From an uncultured virus (IMG/VR IMGVR_UViG_2049941000_000054) (lineage: Duplodnaviria > Heunggongvirae > Uroviricota > Caudoviricetes): a DNA stretch of 19,853 nucleotides. The notes under the pieces are model-generated. The model searched no databases and was not told the DNA's origin. It saw only the letters and a list, made by a program, of their open reading frames with translations. Below, one piece after another: positions 1 through 5,249 of this stretch. The DNA is taken from the IMG/VR virus record IMGVR_UViG_2049941000_000054; one strand, given 5' to 3'. Each line of letters opens with the position of its first letter. Position 1 is the first letter of the stretch. Position numbers and translations under genes: made by a program.

Positions 1-808
1 AGAGAAGACTCTGGTATTCTGTTGTTCCTCGGAGCAGACTATCGAACTGACAAAGGCTTTCTGCGACGCCGGTATTGACGCAAGATACTGTCTGTCCGGC
101 GATTTCGACGAAGATGAGGAGTACAGTGGCGATCGGAAAGGTGTCGTAGATGCCTTCGCGAGAGGAGATTTCCCCGTCCTCGTAAATTTCGGCTTATTTA
201 CGACGGGCATAGATATTCCGGACATCAAGGTCGTAATGCTTATGTTCTCCACGACATCGCTGGTGAAATACCTTCAGTGTCTCGGTAGAGCCTCGAGGAT
301 TGCGGACGGTAAGAATAATGAGTTCATCTGCCTCGATTTCGGGCGTAACTATGAGAGGTTGGGCAGATATGAGGATCGCCGGGAGTGGAGTGTCTGGCAT
401 AACACTTCTGCGGGTGGTGGCGTACCACCTACGAAGGAGTGCCCGCAGTGTGGGAGGCTTGTGCCAGTGTCGTGGACGGATTGTAAGTTTTGTGGATACC
501 ATTGGCCGACACAGCAGGAAACATACGTTGCGGAATTGCAGGAGGTGGTTGCCAGAGAGGATGACGAGACGATCGAGGGGTATGTCGCGAGGAAAAAACT
601 GGAAGGGAAGAATAATAACTGGATCCTGGTTCAAGTCTGTATCAAGAATCCAGATAATCAGAAGGATGCTTTTATGCGGGCTATAGAAGTACTGAGAACA
701 AAGCACGGGGCGAATATCAGCCCGAAATACTGGTATTTTTTTAAGAAGGAGATATTGAGCAAGGTTAAGGTTAAGAAAGAAGATAGCGATTCTGTATTAT
801 GGAAATAG
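1..808 (+). CDS. Superfamily 2 (RadD/YejH-like) DNA helicase, C-terminal part with zinc finger; 5' truncated
   Basis: Frame is open from position 2: KTLVFC (motif IV), LFTTGIDIPDI (motif V), YLQCLGRASR (motif VI QxxGRxxR), then a CPQC...CKFC zinc ribbon; stop at 808. Confidence 0.85.
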   Translation, partial: EKTLVFCCSSEQTIELTKAFCDAGIDARYCLSGDFDEDEEYSGDRKGVVDAFARGDFPVLVNFGLFTTGIDIPDIKVVMLMFSTTSLVKYLQCLGRASRIADGKNNEFICLDFGRNYERLGRYEDRREWSVWHNTSAGGGVPPTKECPQCGRLVPVSWTDCKFCGYHWPTQQETYVAELQEVVAREDDETIEGYVARKKLEGKNNNWILVQVCIKNPDNQKDAFMRAIEVLRTKHGANISPKYWYFFKKEILSKVKVKKEDSDSVLWK

Positions 809-989
809 GCGATAGGGTCAAAGTCGCCAGGCTTGACCAATACACACTTGATGTTATTATGGCGACTAACGCCAAGTCTCCGATAGGGATGACTGGAACT
901 ATTATAGAGAAGTATTATAATCATAATATGAGAAGGGATGAGGTGGTCGTAGAGGCGGATGGCACTTGGGATAAGTGGCTTTGGACACC
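799..989 (+). CDS. Small hypothetical phage protein (KOW/SH3-like beta pattern); 3' end lost in N gap
   Basis: ATG overlaps the helicase end; MEIGDRVKV...IGMTGTIIE resembles small SH3-like phage proteins; interrupted by Ns at 990-999. Confidence 0.5.
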
Positions 990-1003
990 NNNNNNNNNNT
1001 CAT

Positions 1004-1199
1004 ATGCGGACATTGATAGAGGCATATGGGGTTAGCAGGACTCGCGACAAAAAAAGGCGTGATTGTTAAGCAGACGACTCTCCCGTGGGTAAACTGCATC
1101 CATACCAATGTTGGCGGAGGGTGGAAGACGATGGAGGTATTAATATTGGAGGTATATGCAGATAGGGAACTTACTCCCGCCGAGACAGATCGGATTTAA
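1004..1199 (+). CDS. Free-standing C5-MTase TRD-like module 1 (start at 1026, or at 1004 with a frameshift in the A7 run)
   Basis: Manual translation: ...KKGVIVKQTTLPWVNCIHTNVGGGWKTMEVLILEVYADRELTPAETDRI* (TAA 1197-1199). It has an NCIHT (TL-like) core and an LEVY end. ATG 1026 is in frame. ATG 1004 (MRTLIEAYGVSRTRDKK) joins only if A7 at 1049-1055 were A6. Confidence 0.55.
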
Positions 1200-1479
1200 T
1201 AATCCTCAAGAAGGTAGGATTTATTCCTTGGACGATGTGGGACCGACAATTCGGAACGATAGCAGATATTGGATATTAGAGGTATATGATGAAGATAGCG
1301 GCGTACAACATAAAGAAACAGCGGAATGAATACGGCCGCCAGATCCGCAAGGATTACGAGGCTCATAGGCTTCCTGGGGTTCGCCGTAAGGATATAAAGG
1401 AACTAGTGCCGATGTTTGATGGTGTTTGTCGGACGATAACGACGATAGTCGAGGATAATTTATTGTTAGAGGTGTATGA
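1146..1479 (+). repeat. Dispersed junction repeat TT(A/G)GAGGT(A/G)TATG encoding LEVY and the next start codon
   Basis: Copies at 1146-1158 (ttggaggtatatg), 1276-1288 (ttagaggtatatg) and 1466-1478 (ttagaggtgtatg). Degenerate copies at 1016-1028 (atagaggcatatg), 1611 (atggagattatag), 2783-2795 (cttgaaatgtatg) and 2961 (ttggagattg). Confidence 0.8.
1156..1329 (+). CDS. Free-standing C5-MTase TRD-like module 2 (57 aa)
   Basis: Manual translation: MQIGNLLPPRQIGFNNPQEGRIYSLDDVGPTIRNDSRYWILEVYDEDSGVQHKETAE*. QIGN...NPQxGRIYSxDxxxPTI resembles variable-region repeats of phage Dcm-type MTases. Not in the supplied ORF track. Confidence 0.65.
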   Translation: MQIGNLLPPRQIGFNNPQEGRIYSLDDVGPTIRNDSRYWILEVYDEDSGVQHKETAE

Positions 1480-1489
1480 AGGTGATTAG
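1286..1489 (+). CDS. Free-standing C5-MTase TRD-like module 3 (67 aa)
   Basis: RNEYGRQIRKDYE...DGVCRTITTIVEDNLLLEVY resembles the DGxxNTLTTVQKDNLLLE type of variable-region repeat. Confidence 0.65.
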   Translation: MMKIAAYNIKKQRNEYGRQIRKDYEAHRLPGVRRKDIKELVPMFDGVCRTITTIVEDNLLLEVYEGD

Positions 1490-2676
1490 TTGTGCTCTTC
1501 GCGGTAGAGGGGGCGTGTCTGGGCGAAAGGACTCTTGGCATCTCCGGCTCGAATTAGGGGACGAGGATGTAAGCAATACGATAGACACTGTTCAAAAAGA
1601 CTATTTGATAATGGAGATTATAGCGATAAAGAACCCGCTGAAAGGCAAGACGGGGTATGGCTGGCATTTTGAGCAGAATGTGTACGAAATTGACTCGCTG
1701 GTACGGTCTTTGAAGGCTGGGGAGGGTTCAGGGAATATACCGAAAATTATTGATATGGCAAAACATTACAGAATTAGGAAGCTCACTCCGACGGAGTGCC
1801 TGCGATTGATGGGTGTGAGCGACGAAGACATCCAGAAGATGAAGGATGCAGGCATTAGTGACAGTCAGTTGTATAAGATGGCGGACAACAGCATAGTTGT
1901 GCCCGTGCTTGAGGGCATCTTCCGCAATATGGGATTCACAGAGAAACCGCTACGCGTGTTCGAGGCGTTTGCGGGCTACGGCTCGCAGAGNNNNNNNNNN
2001 NNNNNNNNNNNNNNNNNNNNNNNNNNNNNNNNNNNNNNNNNNNNNNNCTCTTCGGAACATCGGCGTCGATCACGAGGTGGTCGGTATCAGCGAGATCGAC
2101 AAGTATGCGATTATGGGCTATAACGCCACGCACCCGGAAACGAAGAATTTCGGAGACATCAGCGAGATAGACTGGCAGGAAGTGCCGGATTTCAACCTGT
2201 TTACCTACAGCTTCCCTTGTACGGACATCTCGAATGCGGGCGCACAGGCTGGATTTGAAGAAGGGAGCGGCACTAGGAGCAGTCTTTTGTGGGAGTGCAA
2301 GAAGGCTATCGAGGAGAAGCATCCGAAATATCTGCTGATGGAGAACGTGAAGGCAATCACGAGCAAGAAGTTCCTACCCGGTATTTTAAGATGGCAGGAG
2401 TTCCTGTCGAAGCAGGGATATGTCAACTTCATCGATGTGCTGAATGCGAAGGACTACGGGATTCCGCAGAATCGGGAGCGGTGTTTCTTGGTTTCTATCC
2501 TGGATGCTGCGTGGTATCAATTCCCCGAGCCAGTGGAACTGACGCTGAAATTGAAAGATATCCTAGAACCCACTGTCAGTGAGAAATATTATCTTGACCA
2601 AGCGAGGGTTGACAAATTTATAGCGGGACTGAGTGATGAAAAACGAGCTGCACTTGAAGAAGGTCGTACCGATTAA
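1476..2676 (+). CDS. Circularly permuted DNA (cytosine-5)-methyltransferase with two N-terminally fused TRD-like modules; spans N gap 1991-2047
   Basis: Order: TRD-like (SNTIDTVQKDYLIME), TRD-like (VRSLKAGEGSGNIPKI), motif IX RKLTPTECLRLMG, motif X QLYKMADNSIVV, motif I FEAFAGYGSQ, gap, motif II SEID, GDI, motif IV SFPCTDIS (2212-2220), motif VI ENV (2341), motif VIII PQNRER. The frame change across the gap is attributed to an inexact gap length. Confidence 0.85.
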
Positions 2677-2812
2677 CGCAACGCCAGACGGCTTTTGCCG
2701 GACTATAAAAGCACAGTATTACAAAAATGGATTCCGCAATTTCACATTTTTCGAAGACGGCGGTTTTGGCGCGACGGGAGTGCTTGAAATGTATGAAGAG
2801 GACGATAAATAA
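2636..2812 (+). CDS. Free-standing C5-MTase TRD-like module (58 aa), downstream of the core
   Basis: Manual translation: MKNELHLKKVVPINATPDGFCRTIKAQYYKNGFRNFTFFEDGGFGATGVLEMYEEDDK*. It has a DGxCRTI core like module 3 and an LEMY end. It overlaps the MTase 3' end in the +1 frame. Confidence 0.65.
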   Translation: MKNELHLKKVVPINATPDGFCRTIKAQYYKNGFRNFTFFEDGGFGATGVLEMYEEDDK

Positions 2813-2996
2813 TGAGACCCCGGTTGCGAAGATTTTTAATCTGGGTGATGGAAGGTTTGCGATGAATGCTCCGGACGGCGTTGCGTGTACACTAACTGGT
2901 GCCCATCACTTTGCTGGAAATATAACTCATCCTCGACAGGGGTTTAGACAGATGGGAGTATTGGAGATTGAGGATACGCCGGAGGATTCCGAATAA
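2793..2996 (+). CDS. Free-standing C5-MTase TRD-like module (67 aa), last of the array
   Basis: MKRTINNETPVAKIFNLGDGRFAMNAPDGVACTLTGAHHFAGNITHPRQGFRQMGVLEIEDTPEDSE*. It has an N-x-PDG-x-x-CTL core and a GVLEI end. Its ATG lies in the TATG of the previous LEMY. Confidence 0.6.
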   Translation: MKRTINNETPVAKIFNLGDGRFAMNAPDGVACTLTGAHHFAGNITHPRQGFRQMGVLEIEDTPEDSE

Positions 2997-3002
2997 TTTT
3001 CT

Positions 3003-3010
3003 TATCTTTG
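3003..3010 (+). promoter_or_regulatory. Bacteroidota-type -7 promoter element TATCTTTG
   Basis: Matches TAnnTTTG in the intergenic gap before the ORF at 3027; no clear -33 TTTG. Confidence 0.55.
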
Positions 3011-3026
3011 CAAAAACCGTAAAGAT

Positions 3027-3245
3027 ATGATAATTAATTTTACAGGCTCTCCTTACGACTACGCAAAGAGCCTTCCCAAAAAGGAACTGCGAGCTTTGAT
3101 CCGCGAGTGTAAGAAGGCGCGAGAGCAGGATTACAACGAGTGGACTGACCGTTGTAGAGTATGCTTTGAAAGGGTCGCATCGGGGGACGACGAGCAGGCT
3201 CGTTGGTGGAGTAACCACGCAGAATTTGTAAGACCCGGCGAATGA
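3027..3245 (+). CDS. Hypothetical protein (72 aa)
   Basis: ORF downstream of the promoter motif; its stop overlaps the next start (ATGA). Confidence 0.6.
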   Translation: MIINFTGSPYDYAKSLPKKELRALIRECKKAREQDYNEWTDRCRVCFERVASGDDEQARWWSNHAEFVRPGE

Positions 3246-3643
3246 TCATAGAGACCCCCGAGCCGCAGAGGAGGAGAACGCACCATTCAAACGAGGGTAG
3301 GATCCAGGCAGAGTGTTTTGCTTGGTTTTGGAATGAATTTCCCCAATACAGGAAGCTATTGTTCCACGTTCCAAATGAAAACGACAGAGCCGACAGTAAT
3401 CCCATCCAGGGTGCAATCAGAAAGAGTCTTGGGGTCGTCCCGGGTGTTTCCGACCTTATTTTGCTTGTTCCTCGCGGTTCCCACGGCGCGCTTCTTATCG
3501 AAATGAAGGACGAAAAGGGGACTCAGAAGCCTGCGCAAAAGGAATGGCAAACCATAGTGGAGGCCCAGGGATACAAGTACTGCTTGTGCCGTAGTTTGGC
3601 ACAATTTAAAAATGTGATCTCTGACTATTTGAATCTCAAATAA
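3242..3643 (+). CDS. VRR-NUC domain (PD-(D/E)XK) nuclease
   Basis: EGRIQ...LFHVPNE...GVVPGVSDLILL...LLIEMK...QKEWQ is the VRR-NUC signature. Confidence 0.85.
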   Translation: MIIETPEPQRRRTHHSNEGRIQAECFAWFWNEFPQYRKLLFHVPNENDRADSNPIQGAIRKSLGVVPGVSDLILLVPRGSHGALLIEMKDEKGTQKPAQKEWQTIVEAQGYKYCLCRSLAQFKNVISDYLNLK

Positions 3644-3658
3644 TTATCGCCATCTTTG
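3628..3658 (+). promoter_or_regulatory. Probable Bacteroidota-type promoter (TTTG-N19-CATCTTTG)
   Basis: TTTG at 3628-3631, 19-nt spacer, and CATCTTTG at 3651-3658 (one mismatch to TAnnTTTG), upstream of the phosphoesterase. Confidence 0.5.
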
Positions 3659-3683: not shown

Positions 3684-4694
3684 ATGAGATATGTTCTTGA
3701 TGAGCAAGGGCGTCGTTTCCCGAGCCTTTGGAAAGCCACGAAAGCCAATGGCGCAACATGTGGCGGAGCGTTACTAAAGAGGTTGAACAAAAAGGGTATT
3801 GTCAGGTCTGGAGGGCACACCTTCTATCTATATGAAGATGACCAGCCCATAACTCCTACGACGACAAATGTGGTCGTGCAGAAGGACCCTACCATGGAGC
3901 GTTTGAGAAAACGTTATTCCGATTCTGAGATAGAGGCCATCGCTAGGGGAGAGGGGATCGAACGTAGGATTATCGTTTTTCCGGAAATTCGGCTTACTGG
4001 TAAGCACCATAAGTTTGTAGTGATAAGCGACACCCACGTCGGCAGCGTCTATTCCCCGTATGAGTGGCATAATGTCGTTTCTGATTATGTTAATAATAAT
4101 GGTATCGAAGCCGTCCTGCATTGCGGAGACCTTGTGGAGGGGATGAAAATCCAGAGGATAGGCACACAGATATACGAATTGTCGGATATAGGATACGAGG
4201 CACAGAAAGCGAGAGCTGCGGAATTGTTATCAAAATACAAAGTTCCTATATATATGATCAGCGGAAACCACGATTTTTACTATCAAGAATATGCCGGGGC
4301 TAATATAATAAAGGCGCTATCCGACAGTTTGGATAATCTGACATATATCGGGCACGATTCCGCAGATATAGATGTTGATGGTGCCACAATACGCCTTTTC
4401 CACGGAGGAGATGGCTCGAATTCCTACGCGGTTTCGTACCGGCTCCAGAAGTTATGCGAGGCGATTACTGGCGGAGAAAAACCGAATATCCTTATTGCCG
4501 GGCACGTCCATAAGTTCTGCTATATATTCGAACGCAACATTCACGCGATCTCGGCTCCTTGTATGCAGATGCAGACCAACTTTATGAGAGGGAAGAAGTT
4601 GGCAGCGCATACGGGCTTCCTTGAATTAGAGTTCGATGTGAACGACAAGAATATCTGTAACCTCGGTGTTAAATTCTTCCCTTTTTACGCTTAG
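3684..4694 (+). CDS. Calcineurin-like metallophosphoesterase with an N-terminal putative DNA-binding domain
   Basis: Motifs ISDTH, HCGDLVEG, SGNHD, LFHG and AGHVH. The N-terminal ~50 aa (GRRFPSLWKATKANG...GHTFY) resemble NUMOD1/HTH-like domains. Confidence 0.8.
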   Translation: MRYVLDEQGRRFPSLWKATKANGATCGGALLKRLNKKGIVRSGGHTFYLYEDDQPITPTTTNVVVQKDPTMERLRKRYSDSEIEAIARGEGIERRIIVFPEIRLTGKHHKFVVISDTHVGSVYSPYEWHNVVSDYVNNNGIEAVLHCGDLVEGMKIQRIGTQIYELSDIGYEAQKARAAELLSKYKVPIYMISGNHDFYYQEYAGANIIKALSDSLDNLTYIGHDSADIDVDGATIRLFHGGDGSNSYAVSYRLQKLCEAITGGEKPNILIAGHVHKFCYIFERNIHAISAPCMQMQTNFMRGKKLAAHTGFLELEFDVNDKNICNLGVKFFPFYA

Positions 4695-4697
4695 AAA

Positions 4698-5249
4698 ATG
4701 GCAACACCACTGATTCCATTACGACCACAGGGCTATGTGTCTGACCTTAAGCCCGAGCAGCAGCTCGCGCTATCTTGGTTCGTATTGTCGAAATGCACGA
4801 GGAAGGAGGCTTTTATCCGCTTTGCCAGACCAGACCTAGCACTATCTAGCTCTGCACCTGCATTAGATAACCACGTCAAGGAGTTTTTTGCGTCCAAAAG
4901 TGCGAAGGAGTATATTGAAGCGTACACGAAAACAATAGAAAATTTTCTACACCCCGCTCCTGCCGCGGAGTCAAAGGCGAAGGGCAGTATGGAAGAGCGG
5001 AAGGCGAGGGCAAAGACAAAACTGGTAGAGTTCGCTATGAGCCTTGCCGATAATATCGAAAACGCTGGCGATCCCGAATTCGTCCTCAAAATAGCCGACA
5101 AGGCAGGGCTTCTCGATATGGAGGATAAGGTCGAGGAGCAGCCGAGGCGATATCTCCCCGAGACATGCGATGGCTGTGCATATCGAAAATTTGTCGAGGA
5201 GAACTGCGAAATAGTTGAGGACGGCACAGAAATTGAAGGGAAAGAGTAA
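4698..5249 (+). CDS. Probable terminase small subunit
   Basis: 183-aa helical protein close upstream of TerL with a C-terminal CxxC (CDGC); assigned mainly by position. Confidence 0.45.
   Translation: MATPLIPLRPQGYVSDLKPEQQLALSWFVLSKCTRKEAFIRFARPDLALSSSAPALDNHVKEFFASKSAKEYIEAYTKTIENFLHPAPAAESKAKGSMEERKARAKTKLVEFAMSLADNIENAGDPEFVLKIADKAGLLDMEDKVEEQPRRYLPETCDGCAYRKFVEENCEIVEDGTEIEGKE

Follow-up and report, generated by a model that had tools for sequence, protein, structure and literature searches.

A putative multispecific C5-cytosine methylase of an uncultured tailed phage with target recognition domain-like modules encoded as separate small open reading frames

Multispecific C5-cytosine methylases (C5-methylases) are known from Bacillus phages and include M.SPRI, M.Phi3TI, M.Rho11sI and M.H2I, studied in the Trautner laboratory. 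The target recognition domains (TRDs) of C5-methylases are marked by a T-(L/I/V) dipeptide in the recognition loop. In Type I systems, specificity comes from HsdS, a separate and exchangeable subunit; its gene and the methylase gene overlap, and their translation is coupled (PMC3510504). The small domain of C5-methylases is formed by the variable region together with motif IX and makes all specific major-groove contacts (PMC3404938). M.AquI and M.EcoHK31I are natural two-chain C5-methylases (PMC3404938, PMC2836561), and in M.EcoHK31I the sequence that encodes the large chain also specifies the small one, in a different reading frame (PMC2836561). Furthermore, the permuted C5-methylases of Type H, namely M.BssHII, M.Alw26I, M2.Eco31I, M.Esp3I and M2.BsaI, have their N-terminus in the variable region and follow the order TRD, IX, X and then I-VIII (PMC5944983). 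Here we describe positions 1004-2996 of a phage sequence of 19,853 nucleotides (nt) from an uncultured member of the Caudoviricetes (IMG/VR record IMGVR_UViG_2049941000_000054; this whole stretch is called "the window" below), in which an array of small TRD-like genes surrounds a circularly permuted C5-methylase.

Seven TRD-like modules (m1 to m7) of 45-70 amino acids (aa) are located in this region. Two of them form the N-terminus of the methylase, whereas the other five are free modules, three upstream and two downstream of it, each with its own open reading frame (ORF) of 57-67 aa. Their order is m1, m2, m3, the m4-m5-core fusion, m6 and m7, as follows:

1004..1199, plus strand: m1, TRD type 'SRTRDKKG...LILEVY', read in the frame of ATG 1004 and then in the next frame past an extra A in an A7 run
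1156..1329, plus strand: m2, 'PQEGRIY..GPTIR..WILEVY', free-standing ORF of 57 aa, +1 frame relative to m1
1286..1489, plus strand: m3, 'NEYGRQIRKDYE..DGVCRTIT..LLLEVY', free-standing ORF of 67 aa, +1 frame relative to m2
1476..2676, plus strand: methylase ORF m4-m5-core, circularly permuted C5-cytosine methylase
1476..1616, plus strand: m4, 'RGRG...SNTIDTVQKDYLIMEI', in-frame fusion to m5
1617..1754, plus strand: m5, 'KNPLKGKTGYGWHFEQNVY..SLVRSLKAG..IPKII', fused directly ahead of motif IX
2636..2812 (alternative start 2633), plus strand: m6, 'PINATPDGFCRTIKAQYYKNG...GATGVLEMY', free-standing ORF of 58 aa, +1 frame, overlapping the methylase stop by 41 nt
2793..2996, plus strand: m7, 'DGVACTLTGAHH...GVLEIE', free-standing ORF of 67 aa inside a longer ORF 2727-2996; end of the array

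The ORFs and coordinates proposed in an initial annotation of this DNA were all found in place; the start at 1004 lies in another frame than the ORF 1026-1199, which retains the TRD core of m1 with a different 10-residue leader. In an alignment of the seven modules, the common core D/E-G/V-x-x-x-T/S-I/L and the hydrophobic-L-E-(V/M/I)-Y end that had been noticed there are visible as well. The modules and their junctions recur in nine related loci. The dipeptide of the T-(L/I/V) type is present as P-T-I in m2, R-T-I in m3, N-T-I in m4, R-T-I in m6 and C-T-L in m7; m5 has R-S-L in its place and m1 has none.

Related loci (designated by L and a number) were collected by scanning for the methylase core in viral contigs, where 48 pattern matches were obtained, 45 of them encoding relatives in 44 loci, and in a collection with one genome per species, where 53 loci were found. 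The seven window modules were compared by BLASTP with 92 longer chains carrying motif IX. The counts of matches were 36 for m4, 26 for m3, 24 for m6, 15 for m2 and two each for m1 and m5, and the matches fall either in the VIII-IX interval or, in permuted chains, at the N-terminus; for m7, none of these 92 chains gave a match. The likeness to TRDs suspected initially thus extends, when tested against the variable regions of longer C5-methylases, to six of the seven modules, and m1 to m6 are, judged by sequence homology, TRD homologues matching the VIII-IX stretches of longer C5-methylases. One of these longer enzymes, L006, is a single chain of 636 aa with homologues of m1, m3 and m4 arranged in tandem between motifs VIII and IX. 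In-chain homologues of m3 occur in L006, L007 and 24 others, and those of m4 in L006 and 35 others. Moreover, m5 together with motifs IX-X aligns to residues 292-391 of M.MpeI (4dkj; expectation value (E) 1.4e-8) and to residues 230-320 of M.HhaI, with m5 itself lying over G-P-T-L-T-A of M.MpeI. By alignment numbering, this M.MpeI segment contains E305, A323, N324 and R326, whose mutation alters specificity (PMC10899764).

The same module type is widespread outside the loci studied here. When 1.84 billion cluster representatives were searched with an m6 family profile, 478 matched at E <=0.001. Among the best 150 of these 478 matches, 76 are of 80 aa or less, 36 of 81-140 aa, 13 of 141-250 aa and 25 longer. 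PF00145 proteins accounted for 14 of the 16 long matches scanned, and in those listed the module is located in the variable region. A word-based search yielded 14 relatives of 48-92 aa, none of them named beyond 'hypothetical protein'. Pfam, PHROGs and NCBIfam contained no family for any mini-ORF, a PDB sequence search with m1, m2, m3 and m7 returned nothing meaningful, ESM Atlas look-ups of m7 and m2 gave no usable match, and tblastn of m6 against GenBank phages gave no match. The PDB matches of the m6 profile to designer PPR proteins were rejected as spurious repeat matches.

Intermediate architectures exist among the proteins matched: P0015 (188 aa) apparently consists of three tandem TRDs and carries no catalytic motif, and in P0031 (403 aa) motifs IX-X come after several TRDs, which are set apart from each other by 'A-E-P / I-P-x-N' boundaries. 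It should be added that two further C5-methylase homologues, P0076 (1107 aa) and P0130 (750 aa), contain Hint/intein and LAGLIDADG domains and therefore represent intein-interrupted methylases.

The catalytic part of the array matches the methylase profiles in reversed halves. Positions 234-322 of the PF00145 profile (motifs IX-X) match 1476-1988 with E 8.5e-9, and profile positions 22-211 (motifs I-VIII) match 2050-2673 with E 3.4e-44; TIGR00675 also matches the methylase in two halves and in permuted order. The methylase order is therefore TRD-TRD-IX-X-I-IV-VI-VIII, i.e. a circular permutation. All of motifs I-X are on one chain in the window, and the sequences FAGYGSQ, FPCTDIS, ENV, QNRER and RIRKLTPTEC are readable, the family consensus being FxGxG for motif I, PC for IV, ENV for VI and QxRxR for VIII:

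1755..1757, plus strand: internal in-frame ATG, start of the IX-X part, 'M-A-K-H-Y-R-I-R-K-L'
about 1755-1935, plus strand: motifs IX-X, within the methylase ORF
about 1950-1990, plus strand: motif I, followed by a run of N at 1991-2047
2050-2676, plus strand: motifs IV, VI and VIII, within the methylase ORF

The frame of the window apparently shifts across the N run 1991-2047. N runs were compared with metagenome assembly contigs of runs X1, X2 and X3, which stem from one bovine gut sample that is possibly the window's own source; the bridging contigs are of 6084 nt in X1 and in X2 and shorter in X3. The contigs of all three runs join 1990 to 2048 with five letters, in frame, so that the frame is continuous and the ORF whole, with 1149 nt and 382 aa. 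With these five letters, the spacing after motif I is that of relatives. There are 16 N runs in the window, nine of them exactly 10 long; the run 990-999 corresponds to 14 letters in public contigs and the run 1991-2047 to 5. Both N runs compared with contigs differ in length, and frames across window N runs are untrustworthy.

An AlphaFold2 model of the L045 orthologue (83% identity, the closest in the genome collection) reached a predicted template modelling score (pTM) of 0.77, and its best Foldseek matches were M.HhaI (E 2.4e-14), M.HaeIII and M.MpeI. In this model residues 43-48, which are the conserved '..L-E-I-Y' end of the TRD, form a strand placed 3 residues ahead of the opening strand of motif IX (52-57). 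A Met stands directly ahead of the motif IX strand in 7/7 permuted sequences and in 3/3 separate IX-X ORFs, and is missing in the canonical relatives L006, L007 and L025. This conserved residue suggests that the permuted gene may also yield a TRD-less core started from ATG 1755.

Nine loci share their layout with the window, namely L001, L002, L003, L004, L023, L045, L005, L014 and L022. A permuted core with flanking mini-ORFs is found in the window, in L001, L002, L003, L004 and L023 (74-85% identity), and in L045, which belongs to a metagenome-assembled genome (MAG) of an uncultured Bacteroidales. L005, L014 and L022 (60-67% identity) are unpermuted: the core ORF ends past motif VIII, 5-8 TRD mini-ORFs are present, and motifs IX-X are encoded by a separate ORF of 77-92 aa. 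No TRD is fused to either core piece in these three loci, and their enzyme could consequently work only with a TRD supplied in trans. The other relatives are single chains of 356-656 aa and two-piece enzymes. In GenBank phages the core found canonical methylases only, with identity of 64.5% or less, and blastn of 800-3200 against the same phages gave no match.

A census of free and in-chain TRDs was conducted by tblastn, for which 20 TRD families of the arrays served as the query library. Among the 44 viral loci, at least two free TRDs were detected in 7 and one in 1, library TRDs were in-chain only in 18, and none was found in 18; the corresponding counts for the 53 genome loci were 1, 4, 34 and 14. 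On the core tree (79 rows) all array loci are placed in the half populated by Bacteroidota genomes, and the tree gives no decision either way on a single origin of the arrays.

The content of the arrays changes readily. L001 has the order m3, another TRD fused to the core, m6, m7 and two more modules; L004 carries ten modules, and L045 has m1 fused to the core and four more. Intact orthologues of m1 are present in L023, L003, L004 and L022, and m1 is fused to motif IX in L045. Free orthologues of m3 and m7 are located in L001 at 3430-3648 and 4744-4950, correspondingly; m4 is a free-standing ORF in L022 (5355-5543), m5 is fused in L004 and in-chain just ahead of motif IX in L068, and m2 had no orthologue as a free ORF in the 97 loci. 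Since module number, order and free or fused state differ among close relatives, one module at a time, the comparison that the initial annotation had called for points to exchangeable cassettes. Two boundaries reveal how the state of a module may change. The window boundary between m4 and m5 equals the free junction of L004 and L022 minus 1 nt, with the ATG lost, and this 1-nt loss drops m5 into the frame of m4. In L045, the boundary at which m1 passes into motif IX combines two L023 junctions, as expected from a deletion between junction repeats. As far as these sequence comparisons can tell, free and fused states interconvert.

Two further arrangements were observed in the relatives. In L023 (4587-4967) and L002 (4587-4979) one ORF comprises an m6-like TRD, the alternative frame of a second TRD, and a third TRD in frame; as the second TRD has its own ORF at 4618-4842, about 130 nt of L023 and L002 serve as TRD sequence in one frame and as linker in the other. 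The last TRD ORF of L045 (2697-3116) has no stop past 'ILEIYEDD' and extends 139 aa into the apparent next gene.

The ratio of nonsynonymous to synonymous substitution rates (dN/dS) was estimated by NG86 between the window and relatives, with dS saturated in many pairs, and amounted to 0.027 for m1 (against L023), 0.066 for m3 (against L001), 0.092-0.111 for m6, 0.043 for m7 (against L001) and 0.055-0.056 for the core. Across loci, nine free-TRD families have identities of 0.64-0.93 at codon positions 1+2 and of 0.26-0.62 at position 3, and the core and IX-X ORFs follow the same pattern. By these substitution patterns the free mini-ORFs are under purifying selection like the core. The mini-genes are thus separate, as first proposed, and not one continuous ORF: they have their own start codons and are constrained (dN/dS 0.027-0.111).

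Free modules are connected by a peculiar overlap, in which the ATG of each is set one base into the codon for the final Tyr (or Asp/His) of the ORF ahead of it. The overlap lies in an 18-nt direct repeat (family D1) with 4 copies of 78-100% identity, far above the number that chance would give:

1144..1161, plus strand: junction repeat copy 1, encoding L-E-V-Y of m1 and containing the m2 ATG one base inside the Tyr codon
1274-1291, 1464-1481 and 2781-2798, plus strand: junction repeat copies 2-4, repeat family D1

At 51 boundaries in 8 loci, which are partly orthologous and hence represent fewer independent events, 40 show a frame step of +1 and 3 a step of +2, whereas 8, chiefly those leading from a TRD to IX-X, keep the frame; L003, a short contig, and L005, with several internal shifts, were left out of this count. 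The ATG is kept at junctions where the overlapped Tyr turned into Asp or His. The old frame remains open for 8-98 nt past the junction, and the position of its stop is variable. The 20 nt ahead of junction starts have a guanine-plus-cytosine fraction of 0.39 against 0.50 for the regions (n=28 junctions). In L023, the junction ahead of the fused module has TAC, not TAT, and is thereby devoid of an ATG, with the frame of the downstream module still open; in L022 the boundary from the core to the first module is an ATGA overlap. 'GGAGGT' within L-E-V was not relied on as a Shine-Dalgarno site: GGAGG-like sites were noticed by eye at 2/17 gene starts in the window, and the closest genome-collection match to the core is a Bacteroidales MAG. 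The scarcity of Shine-Dalgarno-like sites fits a Bacteroidales host.

The A7 run at 1049-1055 splits m1 between frames; the intact frame needs six A, and relatives have A5 followed by G. This run was confirmed by same-sample contigs only, the one independent contig (X5) spanning just 1072-1264, and could be either a mutation or a site of slippage-prone switching. Sequencing or assembly error was considered as the cause of the frame changes in general and rejected, because independent assemblies have the same frames at 60-85% identity and the same-sample contigs agree.

Taken as a whole, these data speak somewhat in favour of a multispecific C5-methylase, whose specificity domains would be made as separate small subunits acting in trans. 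Separate TRD subunits are the simplest reading, because in L005, L014 and L022 all the pieces are constrained and no TRD is attached. The role of the variable region in the small domain and the two-chain precedent of M.EcoHK31I make a TRD in trans plausible. What had been inferred initially thus holds in part, in that six of the seven modules are TRD homologues, and in that the modules have separate ORFs under selection and are exchangeable between relatives.

The following mechanism may be envisaged. Each mini-ORF would be translated alone, through coupling or by initiation at internal sites, the host presumably making little use of Shine-Dalgarno sequences. A free TRD would occupy the small-domain position of a core molecule, beside the strand and helix of motif IX; this partner may be the TRD-less isoform that begins at ATG 1755, and assembly may take place on DNA. 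The shared C-terminal strand of the free TRDs may pair next to the motif IX strand and hold the TRD on the core, and by the L045 model such pairing could do so. Each TRD would direct methylation of its own target sequence, and with such TRD-specific targeting one catalytic gene would, as we propose, shield the DNA of the phage from many restriction enzymes of the host. The junction repeat would double as a recombination point for the gain and loss of cassettes. In its widest form, to which we would give even chances, the proposal is that these C5-methylases are Type I-like: one core would be programmed in trans by interchangeable TRD-only subunits of 6-8 kDa, probably assembling on DNA, and the genes would be chained by a +1 overlapping start junction that permits independent expression, one-base fusion and recombination between phages.

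Several observations weigh against separate subunits acting in trans. To our knowledge, no C5-methylase with a TRD-only subunit has been solved or published. By its motif pattern m7 is a putative TRD, its only longer relative being a protein of 120 aa, and hhalign of m7 against the m6 family gave a weak match (probability 19.6%, E 0.0012). Residues 1-41 of the L045 model, which correspond to the fused TRD, have a predicted local distance difference test score (pLDDT) below 50, and the model is therefore uninformative on the TRD fold, which also weakens the strand pairing proposed above. Motif X at 1886-1888 (GAC) reads A-D-N-S in the window and A-G-N-S in 6/6 permuted relatives, a private change of Gly to Asp that could weaken this copy of the enzyme. 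Among the 60 module copies of the 10 loci, about 10 are disrupted or no longer have their start: L005 and L014 contribute three each, L003 and L023 one 'DDYNHR' module each, and the window and L002 their m1. Some decay therefore occurs. Furthermore, orthologous junctions of related loci do not count as independent.

The alternative that survives best, although we consider it rather unlikely, is a toggle reservoir. Only the in-chain TRDs would be active, and the free mini-ORFs would be stored and switched in by single-base indels or by recombination at junction repeats, giving a phage population with varied methylation repertoires. Every free junction is indeed one base from an in-frame fusion, given the prevailing +1 step; the window boundary between m4 and m5 is precisely such a 1-nt loss, m1 of L045 was fused through a junction-to-junction deletion, and m1 of the window is frame-shifted at the A7 run. 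Nevertheless, L022, L014 and L005 have no fused TRD and yet maintain the core, the IX-X ORF and the TRDs under constraint, and junction start codons are kept though the overlapped residue changes, whereas silent cassettes need none. Homopolymers in 1-3300 are limited to A6, T7 and A7 runs, without any G or C run of six or more. Only 4 weak pairs of inverted repeats were detected in the window, none convincingly flanking a module, so that there is no sign of an invertible cassette. A cassette reservoir, which the initial annotation had offered as its second option, fits the one-base distance between the free and fused states, but the persistence of start codons and of coding constraint makes it less likely.

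It is also distinctly unlikely that the small proteins act otherwise, by occupying or masking restriction sites, or by modulating host methylases or the phage core. Such a role could be entertained because TRD-only proteins are abundant and unannotated, but the small proteins are always encoded within methylase loci, where they adjoin the parts of the core or lie between them; moreover, they are homologous, module by module, to the working positions of single-chain enzymes, and they change between free and fused states.

Recoding, in which ribosomes would shift +1 at each junction and yield one long multi-TRD chain comparable to the single-chain multispecific enzymes, appears very unlikely. 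The uniform direction of the steps and the L023 junction, which has TAC in place of an ATG and keeps the downstream frame open, would accord with it. However, at programmed +1 frameshift sites a codon prone to shifting precedes a stop or a slowly read codon, and a stimulatory element is often present. These hallmarks are absent here: neither a stop nor an obviously slow codon is placed at the shift point of the junction (..GAR-NTN-TAT-GAA-GA..), the overlaps of 8-98 nt end at no fixed stop position, Rfam gave no match, and the RNA of five junction windows folds no better than shuffles (z -0.41 to +1.54). In addition, as many as 10 shifts in succession would be required in L004, the step at three boundaries has the opposite direction, the core of L022 meets its first module in an ATGA overlap, and conservation of the ATG would have no role.

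Least credible is decay, i.e. that the modules are frameshifted remnants of a once continuous variable region of a multispecific methylase: the broken module copies (about 10/60), the frameshift in m1 of the window and Gly to Asp in motif X agree with this idea, which the initial annotation had named as a way to fail, but wholesale decay is contradicted by dN/dS of 0.03-0.11 (dS saturated) with clear codon-position constraint, by regular junctions with start codons, by a layout constant at 60-85% core identity, and by the private changes in the window core, which number 7 at 182 otherwise invariant positions against 2-24 in relatives and are not in excess.

The array occupies a conserved slot in the replication module. 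In the Pfam scan of the window, the genes around it are:

2-808, upstream of the array: helicase C-terminus with zinc ribbon
3242-3643, downstream of the array: VRR-NUC nuclease
3684-4694, downstream of the array: calcineurin-like phosphoesterase (metallophosphatase)

The helicase is upstream of the array also in L002, L003 and L023 and farther upstream in L004, and a VRR-NUC-like ORF is downstream of the array also in L004 and L045. The window is a phage contig, with the large terminase subunit, the major head protein and the tape measure protein all encoded downstream of the array. The scans of the window for tRNA genes and Rfam families gave no match.

Should the separate-subunit reading be true, the enzyme would be the first of the C5-methylases to have its specificity in subunits of their own, and it would show how Bacteroidales phages of the gut and rumen maintain a cheap and expandable anti-restriction repertoire. 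It would also account for hundreds of unannotated metagenomic ORFs of 40-140 aa. For annotation, the lack of Pfam, PHROGs and NCBIfam matches means that gene callers and family libraries miss TRD mini-genes. In the full-text literature no description of TRD-only genes or arrays was found, with subscription journals, REBASE notes and supplements outside the coverage. Furthermore, such an enzyme would be a natural plug-in scaffold for targeted cytosine methylation, which split-methylase work pursues artificially (PMC2836561, PMC3404938, PMC5944983).

In comparison with known systems, the resemblance to Type I HsdS would, if specificity subunits do act in trans here, consist in specificity drawn from a separate exchangeable subunit. 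This is a functional analogy only, as the Type I enzymes are an unrelated family of adenine methylases with one S subunit that carries two TRDs in a fixed complex. The window ORF 1476-2676 has exactly the motif order of the Type H enzymes, by which alone the two are likened. The Type H enzymes are described as single chains with their own TRD, and the accessible portion of the source describes no flanking free TRD genes (PMC5944983).

With the two-chain C5-methylases the array loci share the assembly from separately translated chains. The initial parallel with M.AquI and M.EcoHK31I is apt for L005, L014 and L022, where a separate IX-X ORF gives the I-VIII / IX-X split of M.AquI, but not for the window, which has all motifs on one chain. 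M.AquI and M.EcoHK31I have two chains and one specificity and are not known to include a TRD-only chain, in contrast to the window with motifs I-X on a single chain and five putative extra chains that are TRDs only. The likeness to the SPR/phi3T type comprises one catalytic framework, several short, self-contained TRDs placed side by side, and a phage-borne gene presumably directed against restriction; within this family, L006 is a single chain of the SPR/phi3T kind, with TRDs homologous to m1, m3 and m4 of the window. Unlike the SPR/phi3T type, however, only two of the seven TRDs of the window reside in the catalytic chain, the other five being separate overlapping ORFs with their own starts, and the core around which they are arranged is permuted.

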